A stretch of DNA of 16,851 nucleotides from Gemmatimonadota bacterium (GTDB lineage Bacteria > Gemmatimonadota > Gemmatimonadetes > Gemmatimonadales > GWC2-71-9): contig JBDHDE010000055.1 of NCBI GenBank assembly GCA_039591655.1, positions 1 to 16,851 on the forward strand. Reading direction: 5' to 3'. Made by a program: the position numbers. Below are positions 6,001 to 12,000 of the stretch, one piece after another; positions within the stretch are counted from its first letter, which is position 1, and the number at the start of each line of letters is the position of its first letter.

Positions 6001-9000
6001 CGTTCACGACCTCGCCGTCCTTCACGGGCGCGAGGTGGAAGTGGAGCCCGTTGCCGGCGTGGCCCTCGAGCATCATCGGTCCGGTGGCGCACCGCATGCC
6101 TTTGCGGTGCGCCAGGTTCCGCAGCACCCATTGGGTGAGGAGAATGCCGTCGGCCGCGACAGGTAGCGGCGCCAGGGCGAGCTCGATCTCATGCTGCTCC
6201 CAGATCACTCCCTCGGGCTCGCGGGCCTCGATGTAGCCCACCTCGCTGTGGCCGTACTTCACCGGCACGCCGAGGTCGGCCAGCAGGGCAAGGGCCTTGC
6301 GCCGCAGGCCCTCACCGAACACGAAGGGGGAGCTGGCGTGGTAGCCGCGATCGTCGGCGCCGTAGATGTCCGATTCGTCGCGCCGCTTGCCGAGGAAGTA
6401 CTCGACCTCCCCCAGCGCGTAGAGGTCCACTCCCGTCACCTCACGTAGCTGGGCGCACGCTCGCCGCAGGATGGTGTCGGGCGAGGCGGGCAGCGGGTTG
6501 CCCTCCGGGTCCGCATGGCCGCACATCAGCACTAGGGTGGGGAGTGACGCGAACGGGTCGAGGAACGCCGTGCGCACCCGGGGCCGCAGCACGATGTCCG
6601 ACTTGTCGGGGGGGATCCCCGCCCGAGGGAAGAGGCTCGAGCCGTCGGCACGCTCGCCACCGTCGATTATGTCCTTGAGTTGCGACGTCGAGCGCGGGAC
6701 GAAATCCAGCGTTTTGAGCCAGCCGTCACCGCCCACGTGCATCAGGCTCACGATCTGGACGCCGCGGCTGCGTACCAGGTCGACAACATCGTCCGCCGAC
6801 CAGGCAGAGCGCGGCTTGCCAAACTCGTCCTCGAGGCTCGTTCCCCGCGGAACCGGCGTCCGCGACCGCGGTTGCTGATCATCACTCATCGCCACACCCT
6901 CCCCAGGAACTCCTGGATCTCCGGCACACCGCCCTGAAAGATGAGATAGCCGTCGTGGGGCTCGCGCTCCGTTGTCTCACCGGCGATTGGCTCCATCATG
7001 AGCCGCTTCACCGCCTCCGGATCGTCGGGGTGCACCCCCAGAGCCCAACCCAGTTTGATGAACGCCACCTCGGGGAGCATGTTGGCCAGCGGCAGGACCC
7101 CCAGCTCCAGGATCTCCCGCCCCGTCTCGTACACGTGCATCTGCACGAAGCCCCACAATGTCTGGAGCGTCATGTACATGTGCACGCCCGCCGCATGCGC
7201 CCGCTCCAACGCAGGATAGATGATACGGTTCACGTGCCCCAGGCCCGTGCCCGCAATCACGATCCCCTTGTAGCCCTTCTCCACCAAGGCATCCACCACG
7301 TCGGCCTGCATACCCGGGTAGTAGTACAGCATCGTGACCCGCTCGTCGTAGGCCGCCTGCACGGTGACGTCGCGGTCGTCGCGGCGGTGGCGCCAGTCGT
7401 CCTTGAGCGGAACTATCTTCCCCTTCTCCACCATGGCCAGCGGAATGTCACCCAGCGTGCGGAAGGTGCTGCGGTAGGAGCTGTGCATCTTGCGCACTCG
7501 GGTGCCGCGGTGCAGCAGGTTGTAGCGGTCCGAGGTGGGGCCGAACATGCACACCACCACCTCGGCGATGGGCCCGTGGGCCGCCGTCCAGGTGGCGTTG
7601 ATCAGGTTCTGTGCGGCGTCGGAGGATGGCCGGTCGGAGGAGCGCTGGCTCCCCACCATCACGATGGGCACCGGCGGCCGCTGTACCATGAAGCTCAAGG
7701 CCGCCGCCGTGTGGTGCATGGTGTCGGTCCCATGGCCGATGACGACGCCGTGCCACCCGTCTCGGATCGCCTCCCCCACCTTCTCTGCCAGGATCAGGTA
7801 CTGCTCGGGCCCCATGTTCTCGCTGAACACCCCGAACAGCTTCTCGGTCTCCAGGTTGCAGATGTCGGCCAGCTCGGGCACCGAGCCGTACAGCTCCCCC
7901 GGGCTGAAGGCCGGGATCACCGCACCGGTGCGGTAGTCCAGCCGCGACGCGATGGTGCCGCCCGTGCCGAACAGCTTGACGCGGGGCTTCTCGGGATCCG
8001 TGGGGAACTCCTTCTCCGGGATCTTGTAGTGGGCCTCGCGGTATCCCGTCTCCTCGAGCTGGAGCACGGTGTCGTAGCGCAGGCCCACGTTGTAACCGCT
8101 CCCCAGCTTGAGCACGAGGTGCGCGTCGTCGCTGGTCTCGGAGCGCGGCAGGATGAGCCCCTCGAAGTCACCGCGCGTCGTGCGGGCCTTCACTTCGGAC
8201 CACACCTTCACGTCGAAGCGCTTCATGACCTCGAGCGTGGGGCCGCGGTAGCCTTTGTACTGGTCGTTGCCGCTCACACTACCGCCTCCGGCACCGCGTC
8301 CTCCAGTGCCTGCGCCAGCCGCTCTCGCACGACCCGCGGATCGAGCCGCCCCAGGAATCCCGGCATGACCGCCCCCATTGCCCAGCGCAGCACACCGTCC
8401 CGATCGGTGGTGGAGAGCGACTGCGCCTCCACGACCACGTCGGTGAGCCGTCGGGTAAGGGTGTCCTCGTCCTCGGCACGACGCCGGTGTGGGGCGAGGA
8501 TCTCTGCCACGGAGGCGTCGGGACGCTCGATCAGCCGATCGAGCAGCCGATCCAGCGCCTCGGGCCGGATCTCGCCCCCTTCGATAGCCCGGATCGCCGG
8601 GGCGAGCCGCGCCGGGTCGGGCATGGACGCGGGATCGGGCGTGAGCCGCCCTTGGCGCCGGTGGAACGGCAGCCGCTTCCGGAGCGCGTTGGCTACGCGA
8701 CGGGCGACGTCACCGGGCTTTGGCTCGAGCGCGTCGAACAGGTCGGCCCACGCGGCACGGGCCAGACAGCGCGCGGCTGTGTGGGCCAGCCCCATTCCCT
8801 CGTAGCGCGCTTCCCGTGCCCAGGGCGTCTCGGACAGCCGGTCGCGCACTTCCGCGACCACCGTATCGGCGATCGGTAGCGGTGGCGTGTCCGTATCGGG
8901 ATACATCCGGTCCGGCCCCGGCAGGATCCGCTCGAAGCCGTTGGTCCCGTCGTCGAACGCCTGGCGGGTCTCGGATGGCACGCCGGCGAGTGCGTCCTGC

Positions 9001-12000
9001 CCCCGAATCAGCACCTCGCGGGCGGCCGTAGCCGCGTCCATCTCCTGGCCCCACACCACGACCACCACGTCGCCGCGCTCGGCCTTGAGTTGCTTCCTGA
9101 GGTCGCGCCACTCCCGGGGGTCGAGCCCGTAATCGGTGATGTCAGAGTGGATCATGAACGGCCGGTGCTCCGGGCACGCGATCACCCGCACCCGGTCGGC
9201 GATCTCCCGCGCGAAGGTCACCCCCGGCTGGGTGCGGTGGGCCAGCAGCCCCCCGAAACCGGGCAGCCGCACCGCCGCGATGGTCTCACCCCGCTCCAGC
9301 GCGTCGCGGATGGGTTGGAAGTCGGAGTGGGCCAGCGCCGGGCCAGCGTCCGCGACCTTCGGTGAGACGTCCCAGGGAAGTCCCACGTCGGGGACTGCCA
9401 GCATGCTCGCCGTCACTCCGCGCCGCTCGAGCTCCGCCTTCACGCGCAACAGGTTGAGCTGGCGGAACGCCTCGGTATGAACCAAGAGCGGCAGAAACTT
9501 GTGGTTGTCCACCCCCTTGAGCTCCACGCGGCGGCCGCCGGCCACCGAAACGTTCGTGTCCTGCCGTGCCGCGCCGGGGCCACGACGCACCTTCCCCGTC
9601 GCCCGGGCGATCGCCGCCAGCAGCCGCGCTCCGGCCTGGAGCTCCCAGGGGGTGAGCAGGTCAGGCTCGGTCACCGTCTCGGTGAGGGGCATCCCCAGGC
9701 GGTCGGTCTTGAACGTGATGCGGTGCCCGATGTCGGTCACCTCGCGGCAGGCGTCCTCCTCCAGGGAGAGCTGCCGGATCCTGAGCTCCCGGTCGACCCC
9801 CAGCTCGGGGACCTTGAAGGGGATGACCCCCGTGAGCCCCACCATGGCCGTGCGCTGGAATCCCGTGGGGATCGAGCCGTCCAGGTACTGCTTGCGCATC
9901 ACGTGGAGCTCGGAGACCAGGTTGAGGTTACACAGCTGCGCGATCTCGATGGCCCCGCGGATGGCCTCCTCGTCGACCTCGAACGGCGGCGTGTCGTCCA
10001 TCTCGTAGGTGCACACCGTGCCCCGCTCCAGCCGGTACACGATCTCCTTCTTGGTCTTGAACTCCATGAGCGCGGTGCCGTCGTACTCCCCCAGCTCGCT
10101 CAGGGTGGGCCGCATGTGTCGCAGCACCTCGGCGTCGTACGTGGTGACCCGGTGCCCCGCGGGGCAGCGGCAGAACAGCTTCGAGCTGGTGAGGAGTTGC
10201 TGGTGGACCTCGAGACCGGACATGAACCCAACGGCCTCGTAGTCACCGGGCGTCATGTCGCCGAGGTCCTTGTCCCGGAAGTCCAGCGCCGGCTCCCGGC
10301 GGGGGTTCAGGTCGGCCGGGGGCCTGGGGCCGGCGGGCGGCTGCTCACCGGCGGCTGGCTCGTTTCGGTCGTTGCTCATGGGGCGTGAAAGATATCGTCA
10401 CAACGGCGCAGCGGCAGGCCGTGACACGGGTTGACCATCAAGGCACAGCTGACGAGGTTTCCCGGCTTGATCGCAGGTGCGAGAACAGACCGGAGTGTCT
10501 TCATCACCACGCGAGAGGAGTAATCACCGTGAGGATCCCTAGTCTCCTGATCCGCCTTGGCGCCTCGGCGCTTGCGGTTGGAGTCGTAACGCTCGCCACC
10601 GCTGCACCAGCGGCCGCGCAAGACCGCCCCAACATCCTGGTCATCTGGGGTGACGACATAGGCTGGTTCAACATCAGCGCCTACAACATGGGCATGATGA
10701 GCTATGAGACGCCCAACATCGACCGCATCGGCCGCGAAGGAATGCTGTTCACCGACTTCTACGGACAGCAGAGCTGCACTGCGGGCAGAGCCGCCTTCGT
10801 GACGGGCCAGAGCCCGGTCCGTACCGGCCTGACCAAGGTCGGCATGCCCGGCGCCACGCTGGGCCATCAGCCCGAGGACGTGGGCATCGCCGAGCTGCTA
10901 AAGAACCACGGGTACCGAACCGGCCAGTTCGGCAAGAACCACCTGGGCGACCTGGACGAGTTCCTGCCCACGAACCACGGCTTCGACGAGTTCTTCGGCA
11001 ACCTCTACCATCTGAACGCCGAGGAGGAGCCGGAGGACCCCGACTATCCCCACCACATGCCCGAGTTTGTCGAGCAGTTCGGTCCCCGTGGCGTGATCCA
11101 CAGCTACGCGGACGGGCGGATCGAGGACACTGGCCCACTGACCAAGGAACGGATGAAGGTCGTGGACGAGGAGACGCTGGAGGCGGCGCTGGATTTCATC
11201 GAGCAGGCACACGCCGCCGGGGAGCCCTTCTTCGTGTGGTGGAACTCCACCCGGATGCACATCTGGACGCACCTGAAGGACGAGTCGGTGGGTGTCACGG
11301 GCCAGGGGATCTATGCCGACGGCATGGCGGAGCACGACGGCCACGTGGGCATACTGCTCGACAAGCTCGACGAGCTCGGCATCACCGACAACACCATCGT
11401 GATGTACTCGACCGACAACGGCGCGGAGACGTTCAGCTGGCCCGACGGTGGCACCGTCCCCTTCCGGGGCGAGAAGAACACCAACTGGGAGGGCGGCTAT
11501 CGGGTCCCCTCCATGATCAGATGGCCCGGGCACATTCCGGCCGGTGTGATCTCCAACGAGATCATGTCCCACGAAGACTGGGTCCCCACTCTCATGGCTG
11601 TCGTGGGAGAGCCCGACATCAAGGAGAAGCTCCTTGCCGGACATCGCGCCAACGGCAGGACGTTCCGTAACCACCTGGACGGGTACAACTTCCTGCCGTA
11701 CCTGACCGGGCAGGTTGATGAGGGTCCGCGGCGGGAGTTCTACTACTGGACCGACGACGGCGCGATGGCCGGCGTGCGATACAACGACTGGAAGGTCGTG
11801 TTCATGGAGCAGCGCTCGCACGGCTTCGACGTTTGGCAGGACCCCTTCGTGTCGCTCCGCCTGCCCAAACTCTTCAACTTGCGGCAGGATCCTTTCGAGC
11901 GTGCTGACCACGAGGGTATCGGCTACCCACGCTGGAGGGTGGAGAAGCTCTTCATGATGTACGGCGCGAGCGCGCTCGTAGCGCGGTTTGTCCAGTCGTT

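Follow-up and report, generated by a model that had tools for sequence, protein, structure and literature searches.

A complete gatE-gatD operon, encoding both subunits of the tRNA-dependent amidotransferase GatDE, is present on a Gemmatimonadota contig that was analysed over its whole length of 16,851 nucleotides (the window). On balance we favour the view that this enzyme belongs to an old bacterial GatDE lineage of several phyla, sister to or derived from Asgard GatE, which has been re-tooled: it would ignore the tRNA elbow, accept U1-A72 and be strongly selected only beside the direct synthetases, acting as an amidating proofreader or as an amidotransferase with a new substrate. The more specific proposal, our best single explanation, is that this GatDE replaces lost GatCAB as a backup Glu-tRNA(Gln) amidotransferase for Glu-tRNA(Gln) leaking beside GlnRS; we hold it at slightly below even confidence. 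Reviews treat GatDE as restricted to archaea and no paper in the searched literature reports it from bacteria; databases already label the bacterial proteins as GatDE. The operon and its surroundings are composed as follows.

8274..10379, minus strand: gatE, 701 aa, kinase/amidation subunit built of a catalytic core, a GAD insertion at about 357-452 and a weak YqeY-like tail.
6886..8277, minus strand: gatD, 463 aa, asparaginase-type amide-hydrolysing subunit with a GatD_N domain, its GTG start overlapping the gatE stop.
5483..6889, minus strand: divergent glutamine-synthetase-like (GS-like) gene, 468 aa from ATG, translationally coupled to gatD and the third operon gene in this lineage.
1..4690, minus strand: TolC-MFP-RND efflux block (Pfam OEP, HlyD), context between operon and glnS and outside the enzyme.
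Contig C83 6457-8187, minus strand: glnS, after the RND gene that runs off window position 1 into C83.

The preliminary description had called gatE and gatD intact and full-length, which was confirmed by their coordinates, profile scores and catalytic residues. GatE scored 422.7 bits with NCBIfam TIGR00134 (cut-off 319.55) and 473.2 with NF003107 (456), GatD 485.4 with TIGR02153 (324) and 476.2 with NF003217 (310), and every NCBIfam GatB model fell far under its cut-off on GatE. The Pfam domains are GatB_N, GAD and GatB_Yqey in GatE, the last barely over cut-off (27.4 bits against 27), and GatD_N (PF18195), Asparaginase and Asparaginase_C in GatD. Both proteins find their best PDB matches in the archaeal GatE and GatD chains of 1zq1 and 2d6f. 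In the alignment to 2d6f, GatE H59, E207 and E234 correspond to M. thermautotrophicus His15, Glu157 and Glu184, named as Mg-coordinating in PMC2330236, and they are invariant in 98/98 bacterial rows. GatD keeps the TGGT, HGTD and RK motifs and is 66-84% identical to six loci from several phyla. The likeness to archaeal GatDE (Methanothermobacter thermautotrophicus, 2D6F; Pyrococcus abyssi, 1ZQ1) includes both subunits, the Mg-binding His/Glu/Glu, the asparaginase Thr/Asp/Lys motifs and the domain order, with GatD_N joined to a type I asparaginase and the GatE core to GAD insertion, helical and tail domains. The gatE/gatD and gatD/GS-like junctions are 4-nt stop/start overlaps. The GS-like protein has Gln-synt_C and Gln-synt_N domains (Pfam) and lies under every GS equivalog cut-off; 1512 of 8000 scored proteins were its relatives at E<=1e-60, and a canonical GlnA is encoded elsewhere, on contig C20.

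That the operon is archaeal DNA contaminating this binned genome, or an idle relic of recent acquisition, is extremely improbable and largely refuted. The assembly does consist of 149 contigs (95.2% complete, 0.7% contamination, closest named relatives Gemmatimonadota), and in the presence of GlnRS the pathway is formally dispensable. However, the order gatE-gatD-GSlike-OMP-TolC-MFP-RND-glnS recurs in the three other genomes of the genus (G008, G083, G137), and C83 ends in the same 91 bases with which the window contig begins, an overlap that places glnS, starting with TTG behind GGAGG, about 9 kb downstream of the operon. GC is flat over the whole window, and GC3 of the genes (0.90-0.92) resembles that of housekeeping synthetases (0.83-0.91). 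Within the genus dN/dS is 0.15-0.16 for gatE, 0.08-0.10 for gatD and 0.10-0.12 for the GS-like gene; gatE and gatD (0.08-0.16 together) are thus under purifying selection. The protein falls inside the bacterial clade, and gatED also occurs on the single-contig genomes G035 and G189.

That clade, also claimed before, was recovered again in quick trees without bootstrap: a branch with SH-aLRT 100 set 26 bacterial loci and 7 unlabelled representatives apart from 30 archaeal-type rows, and the bacterial clade had SH 99 with a GatB outgroup. Bacterial GatE reads KQYLDGSIP, as do some Asgard rows, against archaeal KxVIDGSNT. Of 77 archaeal-type rows, 96% have Q where M. thermautotrophicus has Gln240; bacterial rows show P, D, H or S there. 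The GXXAXGX motif of the YqeY-like tail, implicated in D-loop reading and in excluding Asp-tRNA(Asn), is absent from this GatE and from the bacterial rows printed, and is missing in some archaeal rows as well. When pairs of equal core identity (55-65%) are compared, tail identity is 19% in bacterial pairs and 34% in archaeal-type pairs; for segment 466-500, at matched core identity, it is 83% in bacterial and 67% in archaeal comparisons. On these alignments the core of bacterial GatE is strongly conserved and its putative tRNA-elbow tail relaxed. These traits separate it from archaeal GatDE. The GAD insertion is retained at full length.

The host differs from archaea too. GlnRS, AsnRS, one GluRS and one AspRS of this genome (G000) exceed their cut-offs, and its sole tRNA-Gln(UUG) has U1-A72, as had been stated, not the A1-U72 that characterises the archaeal GatDE substrate; U1-A72 was found in 37/37 tRNA-Gln rows of the family and 17/17 of other phyla. 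Archaeal GatDE works in GlnRS-free hosts with ND-GluRS, whereas here GlnRS is present, GluRS is of bacterial type and an archaeal-type ND-GluRS was not found in the genome. The claimed absence of gatA and gatB held: profile searches of the genome gave no Amidase match and no GatB_N match except gatE, and tblastn with 3 GatA and 6 GatB proteins of relatives matched only gatE. All four genomes of the genus lack gatA, as does the single-contig family genome G035.

In a family sample of 151 genomes, drawn independently of the preliminary description, gatE was found in 22. The reported exclusion of GatCAB and link with GlnRS were both reproduced, gatA occurring in 4/22 gatE genomes against 119/129 gatE-negative genomes and glnS in 19/22 against 25/129, the remaining three of the 22 having contig ends at the operon. 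The 129 include G014, G068 and G134, which are marked unpublished and were counted only in the family tallies. In an AspRS-tree clade of 34 genomes, nearly all with GlnRS and its rows hand-picked by the analyst, 33 have an amidotransferase: 18 GatDE only, 12 GatCAB only and 3 both. The near-exclusion indicates overlapping function, and it is supported that GatDE stands in for GatCAB within the family. The bacterial GatCAB (Asp/Glu-AdT; Staphylococcus aureus, Thermotoga, Thermus) performs the same chemistry in cells with U1-A72 tRNAs, and GatE is a paralogue of GatB; GatDE differs in drawing ammonia from the asparaginase GatD instead of the amidase GatA, in having no GatC, at which no separate search was aimed, and in the GAD insertion.

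Outside the family gatD shared the locus of gatE in 74/80 GTDB loci, exactly as first described. Among 50 GatDE genomes of other phyla GlnRS is present in 46, AsnRS in 47 and GatB in 20, which agrees with the earlier caveat that some such genomes keep gatA and makes its exclusion family-specific. Only 2/50 lack both GlnRS and GatB, one of them with glnS cut at a contig end. No well-supported case was found of GatDE as the only route to Gln- or Asn-tRNA, another difference from GatCAB, and that GatDE is seemingly never the sole Gln route in the 50 genomes fits a backup role.

Gene neighbours also argue for the backup role, being Glu/Gln enzyme genes and hardly ever aspS or asnS. Directly after gatD stand glnS in 8 of the 22 family genomes, the GS-like gene in 8, neither in 3 and a contig end in 3; gltX lies divergently upstream of gatE, at <=0.4 kb, in 6, and a divergent gltX/glnS pair without gatED occurs in five gatE-less relatives. 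In the 80 GTDB loci aspS was nearby in 1 and asnS in 0. The full-length GAD insertion is consistent with the same role, being predicted in PMC2943598 to prevent ND-AspRS from binding and to form a cradle for GluRS. In such a backup pathway GlnRS would make most Gln-tRNA(Gln), GluRS would probably still leak glutamate onto tRNA(Gln), and GatDE would phosphorylate and then amidate it. By analogy with the archaeal enzyme, GatD and GatE would form an alpha2beta2 complex in which NH3 freed by GatD from Gln or Asn is tunnelled to GatE, which would form a gamma-phosphoryl intermediate. Comparisons suggest that the enzyme, with its putative acceptance of U1-A72 tRNA, would recognise mainly the acceptor end, where U1-A72 contrasts with the G1 of tRNA-Glu, and would read the D-loop little, and that the amide donor may come from the adjacent GS-like enzyme.

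The backup pathway depends on misacylation by GluRS, and here the evidence is mixed. In GlnRS-less genomes GluRS is necessarily non-discriminating; S318+Q327 occurs in 15/16 such family genomes and in 0/13 GatDE genomes, a putative signature supported by only 2 independent contrasts (sign test p 0.5). The GluRS of this genome has A318+R327, like two GlnRS-only genomes without amidotransferase, and so may make little Glu-tRNA(Gln), which would speak against the backup role. In 37/37 family rows tRNA-Gln has the paired four-base D-stem and 4-nt variable loop that GluRS1 of A. ferrooxidans needs (PMC9976931), which would leave base 36 as the main basis of discrimination. The tRNA-Gln D-loop is invariant in 17/17 family GatCAB rows and deviates in 11/19 rows of GatDE-only genomes; by this comparison it drifts once GatCAB is gone. 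Four GatDE-only rows carry an extra D-loop base, a published antideterminant for archaeal GatDE. In the GatCAB genome G016 it is tRNA-Asn whose D-loop has the additional, amidation-blocking base; with the invariant tRNA-Gln D-loop this makes the family GatCAB appear aimed at tRNA-Gln, in favour of the backup role. Faster tail divergence and D-loop deviations both fit a lost elbow reading, but the extra base may equally mean that tRNA-Gln is a non-substrate. Also against the backup role, a second Glu-amidotransferase looks redundant in the 16/50 other-phylum genomes with GatDE, GatB, GlnRS and AsnRS, and genus g28 (3 genomes) lives on GlnRS without any amidotransferase.

GatDE and its GS-like neighbour could also work off bulk tRNA metabolism in glutamine economy. 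Asn or Gln would then supply amide nitrogen for a glutamyl group that is not on a bulk tRNA but is free glutamate or is borne by a peptide, a carrier protein or a non-canonical tRNA. We consider this distinctly unlikely. It would account for the conserved core beside a decaying elbow tail, for the coupling to the GS-like gene in 8/22 family genomes, for a GluRS that looks discriminating, for neither GlnRS nor AsnRS being made dispensable, and for D-loop drift in tRNA-Asn as well as tRNA-Gln of GatDE-only genomes (in G025 both have the extra base). However, the helical and tail domains persist under purifying selection (dN/dS 0.14-0.24; an M-G-x-x-M-like motif in 80/98 bacterial rows, and the YqeY match), the near-exclusion with GatCAB points to overlapping function, none of the 80 GTDB loci from other groups showed the GS-like linkage of this family, and no candidate substrate gene was found travelling with the operon.

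A switch or widening of specificity towards Asp-tRNA(Asn), giving tRNA-dependent Asn synthesis, is unlikely too, if slightly less so. In Thermus thermophilus, Deinococcus radiodurans and Bdellovibrio bacteriovorus GatCAB is likewise kept despite both direct synthetases, its role there being Asn synthesis with ND-AspRS (PMC4206432), and GatDE replaces GatCAB in genomes already holding GlnRS and AsnRS. Neither AsnA nor, over cut-off, an AsnRS-like asparagine synthetase was found in this genome, whose one AsnB-like gene follows what reads as an ArnT-like ORF and has a polysaccharide-type (surface-modification) amidotransferase as top model; this counts against the backup role. The missing GXXAXGX and the U1-A72 of tRNA-Asn point the same way, but the motif is also missing from some archaeal rows and U1-A72 persists in tRNA-Asn of the amidotransferase-free g28. 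The neighbours are gltX, glnS and GS-like genes, not aspS or asnS. This GatE has kept its GAD insertion, and ND-AspRS is not bound by archaeal GatDE (PMC2943598). G035 has both GatDE and AsnA, and AsnRS is kept in 22/22 family GatDE genomes as in most of those from other phyla. In 70/71 family rows the single AspRS carries Leu in the RDLG motif, as the discriminating E. coli and Thermus enzymes do. The His/Leu rule for AspRS discrimination has known exceptions.

The association with GlnRS could also be physical, GatDE amidating Glu that GlnRS misattaches when glutamine is scarce or lending its YqeY domain in trans, which we find highly doubtful. Archaeal GatDE binds archaeal ND-GluRS with a KD of 40-100 nM (PMC2943598), and the full-length bacterial homologue of that synthetase is GlnRS, which here scores 334 bits against the archaeal GluRS model, aligned over residues 18-528. 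Co-occurrence with GlnRS and the gatE-gatD-glnS operons fit. All 8 glnS directly behind gatD encode short forms, without the YqeY extension in the 7 whose ends were printed, against 8/11 GlnRS+GatCAB rows with it; short GlnRS without GatDE and YqeY-bearing GlnRS with GatDE both occur, however. GatDE exists without GlnRS in G169 (single contig) and G199, and among the 80 GTDB loci from other groups a single one had glnS close to gatE. THSLC and Q-x-E, which we take to be the glutamine-pocket residues, are intact in all GlnRS rows, so glutamate charging by GlnRS is unlikely.

If GatDE is an amidating proofreader, Gln-tRNA(Gln) formation by both routes would be shown in bacteria for the first time. 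Either version of a re-tooled bacterial lineage, proofreader or enzyme with a new substrate, would overturn GatDE as an archaeal signature, as well as the rule by which a genome with GlnRS but no GatCAB must have a discriminating GluRS.

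The operon is read from the minus strand, and 4-nt stop/start overlaps join its three genes:

8274-10379, minus strand: gatE, 701 aa, two NCBIfam equivalogs over cut-off
6886-8277, minus strand: gatD, 463 aa, two NCBIfam equivalogs over cut-off
5483-6889, minus strand: GS-like gene, a distinct family below every GS cut-off

All NCBIfam GatB models scored far below cut-off for gatE and gatD. Pfam assigned GatB_N and GAD domains to GatE, whose YqeY tail was borderline, and GatD_N with asparaginase domains to GatD; the closest solved structures of both proteins were archaeal chains of 1zq1 and 2d6f. 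Mutation of His15, Glu157 or Glu184 kills the M. thermautotrophicus GatE according to the accessible text of PMC2330236; H59, E207 and E234 of the gatE product align with these residues, and the three positions are invariant in all 98 bacterial GatE rows. Judged by sequence family and catalytic residues, the enzyme of the genome under study (G000) is GatDE, not GatCAB, and the preliminary description of an intact gatE-gatD operon was borne out in its coordinates, its equivalogs over cut-off and its catalytic residues. GC3 was 0.90 for gatE and 0.92 for gatD, matching the housekeeping synthetases, and against three congeners gatE had a dN/dS of 0.15-0.16 and gatD one of 0.08-0.10, at or below the 0.15-0.19 of glnS. 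The gatE-gatD operon is resident and under selection. Contamination or a recent island was ruled out by the overlap with contig C83, the gene order of the congeners, GC, GC3 and dN/dS, and that gatE-gatD is a relic or a contaminant is hardly credible. PADLOC gave zero matches, the scan for promoters and terminators found none, and the one match of a plasmid search was a haloarchaeal replicon.

The GS-like family has 1512 relatives at E<=1e-60 among 8000 scored; the GS catalytic motifs are kept, as judged by eye, and the protein is short at its C-terminus. A 969-aa relative, P0056, carries GatB_N, GatD_N and Asparaginase in a single chain and is possibly a GatE-GatD fusion or a read-through. 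At two loci 3.3 kb (L060) and 1.5 kb (L070) of inserted DNA separate gatE from gatD, and at a third (L058) gatE has no gatD in the 8 kb downstream and aspS upstream.

The assembly of G000 (3.31 Mb, 149 contigs, 95.2% complete, 0.7% contaminated) held zero amidase-family genes and no GatB except gatE, both in profile searches and in tblastn with the GatA and GatB of relatives, as expected from the earlier claim that GatCAB is absent. A gatCAB hidden in an assembly gap was ruled out, gatA being absent from 4/4 genomes of the genus and from one single-contig genome. GlnRS, AsnRS, one bacterial GluRS, one AspRS and a canonical GlnA scored over cut-off; AsnA, searched for in 5 genomes, is absent from G000, and no AsnRS-like asparagine synthetase scored over cut-off there. 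The single AsnB-like gene scored best on a polysaccharide-type model and has an ArnT-like ORF upstream, the latter read from sequence by eye. The nearest named relatives of the G000 GatE are Gemmatimonadota.

The final 91 bases of C83 are identical to the first 91 of the window (contig C55), so the RND gene, truncated at position 1, runs on into C83. Across the junction glnS lies about 9 kb downstream of gatD, with its own TTG start and a GGAGG ribosome-binding site, and the remaining three members of the genus share the gene order. In the region made up of window 1-1071 and C83 6457-10141, the RND gene is about 140 bp shorter at its 3' end than in the congeners G008 and G083 and changes frame, so that ORF finders give one 1225-aa RND-GlnRS frame. 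Also in the window are an arylsulfatase and a HAD hydrolase divergent from gatE (10385-13173, plus strand), a VapBC-like type II toxin-antitoxin pair of Phd/YefM antitoxin and PIN-domain toxin (13362-14101, plus strand), and a multiheme cytochrome-HEAT-TPR protein with a small Rieske protein (14115-16708, minus strand).

An even sample of 151 family genomes included G000 and three unpublished gatE-negative ones, which enter the tallies only; gatE was over cut-off in 22 of the 151. The near-exclusion of gatA and the link to glnS reported earlier recurred in this sample, gatA being present in 4/22 gatE genomes vs 119/129 others and glnS in 19/22 vs 25/129; these counts are patterns, not tests, since kin are not independent. 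The three gatE genomes that lack glnS have a contig end at the operon or shortly past it. All 22 have asnS (141/151 family-wide), and AsnB-like genes, housekeeping and polysaccharide types pooled, occur in 130/151 genomes at 0-8 copies. Directly after gatD came glnS in 8 genomes and the GS-like gene in another 8; 3 had neither there, and in the remaining 3 the next gene was cut off by a contig end. A divergent gltX lies within 0.4 kb of gatE in 6 family genomes and 3-14 kb off in 3 more, and five gatE-less GlnRS relatives have the divergent gltX/glnS pair without intervening gatED. An AspRS tree of 71 hand-picked genomes (all 22 with gatE, most of those with GlnRS, and a sample of others) gathered 21/22 gatE genomes in one clade of 34 (SH 100), in 33 of which an amidotransferase is found: GatDE only in 18, GatCAB only in 12 and both in 3. 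Outside this clade stands the genus g28 (G028, G098, G150), which has GlnRS and AsnRS and lacks GatDE, GatCAB and AsnB-like genes, AsnA also being absent in the two genomes checked; by gene content its members are probably auxotrophic for asparagine and would serve as natural controls for a discriminating GluRS.

Outside the family, a scan of GTDB returned at least 594 stretches encoding a GatE relative (594 of the 600 listed). The best 80 of these came, by record titles, from Ignavibacteria, Bacteroidota, Aminicenantes, Krumholzibacteriota, Calditrichota, Cloacimonetes, Myxococcota, Acidobacteriota and others; among these best 80 of at least 594, gatD shared the locus with gatE in 74, while glnS was near gatE in 2, aspS in 1 and asnS in 0, and no ORF family besides gatD accompanied gatE. 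Transfer of the amide to some other carrier together with the GS-like enzyme, which its place in the operon brings to mind and which finds no such third partner across these phyla, is unlikely. GatDE as a partner of GlnRS, for which the glnS neighbours in the family speak and the rarity of glnS in the best 80 loci does not, is very unlikely. In 50 other-phylum GatDE genomes picked from the best 80 loci, none titled Gemmatimonadota, glnS was present in 46, asnS in 47 and gatB in 20; GlnRS and AsnRS without GatB were found in 27, and all three in 16. GlnRS and GatB were both absent from 2/50, one of which carries the broken start of glnS at the end of a contig. GatDE is nearly always accompanied by direct synthetases. 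The exclusion of GatCAB put forward in the preliminary description stands within the family and falls across the clade: because gatB occurs in 20/50 of these genomes, it is a family trait, not a clade trait. The archaeal rule that GatCAB is retained only without AsnRS also fails, AsnRS being present in 18/20 GatB-bearing GatDE genomes. One single-contig bacterial genome, G169 (locus L073), has GatDE, GatB, AsnRS and two GluRS-family genes, with GlnRS absent.

A quick IQ-TREE of 63 GatE rows likewise recovered the bacterial clade apart from archaeal GatE, a branch with SH 100 parting 26 bacterial loci and 7 unlabelled representatives from 30 archaeal-type rows, 7 of which are named archaeal by their source (protein or cluster member) and the rest assigned by the tree. 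When six GatB of a single family served as outgroup, the bacterial clade (SH 99) paired with a Heimdallarchaeota-labelled cluster (SH 95), and a KQYLDGSIP-like motif is common to bacterial and Asgard rows. Bacterial GatE may have arisen either by Asgard transfer or by deep sisterhood, neither being favoured because the AU test did not reject archaeal monophyly (p 0.43). Where M. thermautotrophicus GatE has Gln240, a residue presumably close to the first base pair, 96% of 77 archaeal-type rows have Gln and bacterial rows have Pro, Asp, His or Ser. The GAD insertion of bacterial GatE has the archaeal length. In archaea this insertion is predicted to cradle ND-GluRS and preclude ND-AspRS, and binding of ND-AspRS to GatDE was looked for and none detected, according to the accessible part of PMC2943598. 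Bacterial GatE, like a few archaeal rows, lacks the tail motif GXXAXGX, which the available portion of PMC2811023 links to the exclusion of Asp-tRNA(Asn). At 55-65% core identity, identity in the tail, where the alignment is uncertain, was 19% for bacterial and 34% for archaeal-type pairs, and in segment 466-500 at matched core identity it was 83% vs 67%. The picture suggested by these alignments is of a catalytic core tightly held and an elbow-binding tail relaxed. That GatDE makes Asn on tRNA-Asn, which the missing tail motif would permit and the kept GAD insertion would oppose, is unlikely. The AspRS motif RDLG, presumably that of the discriminating E. coli and Thermus enzymes, occurs in 70/71 rows and in every gene-content class, so that this comparison did not separate the classes.

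The acceptor end of tRNA-Gln(UUG) begins with U1-A72 in 37/37 rows from 36 family genomes and in 17/17 from other phyla, and the archaeal-type A1-U72 was found in 0/54; the table leaves out two extra genes of G124 and has two regions without a call. The first search pattern matched only 7/50 genomes because it demanded U20, and a looser one matched 52/56. G000 differs from the archaeal GatDE system in three features: its tRNA-Gln does not have A1-U72, its GatE does not have the tail motif, and GlnRS is present. All family rows have a four-base paired D-stem and a 4-nt variable loop, both required by A. ferrooxidans GluRS1 in the text available of PMC9976931. The D-loop is of an identical 7-nt C20 type in 17/17 rows of GatCAB genomes and deviant in 11/19 GatDE-only rows, with U20 in 7 (G000 included) and an extra base in 4; either the D-loop goes unread by bacterial GatDE or tRNA-Gln may not be its substrate. 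Among 15 relatives, g28 included, tRNA-Asn keeps U1-A72, and its D-loop is one base longer in one GatCAB genome and in two with GatDE only. In G069 (L389) and G020 (L393) the normal tRNA-Asn(GUU) gene is accompanied by a divergent second one whose acceptor stem differs, and a tRNA array in G124 includes additional genes for Asn and Gln.

GlnRS of the family retains motifs that we take to be those of the glutamine pocket, and a glutamate-type pocket was rejected on this ground. The family enzyme (L122-L151) exists in two lengths, about 555 aa and, where a YqeY-like extension follows at the C-terminus, about 765 aa, the short form being encoded directly behind gatD; in G000 and G137 a Pro precedes HIGH. 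In GluRS, the Arg at G000 position 317 is invariant among 42 family enzymes and probably corresponds to Thermus Arg358 (described in the accessible part of PMC12088422). S318 together with Q327 was found in 15/16 GlnRS-less, 3/11 GlnRS+GatCAB, 0/13 GatDE and 0/2 g28 genomes, a signature backed by only two independent contrasts (p 0.5); G000 has A318 and R327, which suggests a GluRS shifted towards discrimination. Across the family GluRS sequences (G000:C114 2422-3744; L256-L296), GlnRS-less genomes have S/Q at 318/327 and most genomes with GlnRS have A/R. This change is seen in both subclades, which makes the two positions, in the anticodon domain next to the invariant Arg, a candidate switch for discrimination. 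One GluRS subclade, G000 included, is about 425-445 aa long and misses some 40 residues of the acceptor-binding insertion.

GatDE is tentatively taken to be a backup amidotransferase for Glu-tRNA(Gln) beside GlnRS. This reading agrees with its standing in for GatCAB, with gene neighbours that are Glu/Gln enzymes, with a GAD insertion that has been retained and a tail that has loosened, and with the lack of any well-supported case in which GatDE is the sole route. GlnRS would make the bulk of Gln-tRNA(Gln), and GluRS would leak some glutamate onto a tRNA-Gln with a tRNA-Glu-like core. GatE and GatD, as a complex, would read the acceptor end of this Glu-tRNA(Gln), phosphorylate the leaked Glu and then amidate it, using Gln or Asn as the ammonia source; in sister genomes this task falls to GatCAB. 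The GluRS signature is the main evidence against this backup role.

GatDE has been called archaea-only (in the accessible portions of PMC2811023, PMC2330236 and, from 2022, PMC9499178), a restriction used in such texts to argue about LUCA and the two amidotransferases of archaea. As far as its available text goes, a 2014 survey knew of no bacterium encoding both routes to Gln-tRNA(Gln) (PMC4206432), and the presence of GlnRS with gatCAB absent was taken as robust proof of a discriminating GluRS in PMC3927822, the accessible part of which makes no mention of gatDE. No paper on bacterial GatDE was found in the literature searched, with subscription papers mostly and supplements wholly outside it. 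Bacterial GatE proteins are already auto-labelled in NCBI and JGI, so the gap is one of interpretation, not of detection. The archaea-only view, the absence of dual routes and the inference of a discriminating GluRS are all put in question by a bacterial GatDE clade that is under selection and occurs beside GlnRS, and this clade offers a direct test with one enzyme, two candidate tRNAs and natural pairs of relatives that carry GatCAB, GatDE, both or neither.
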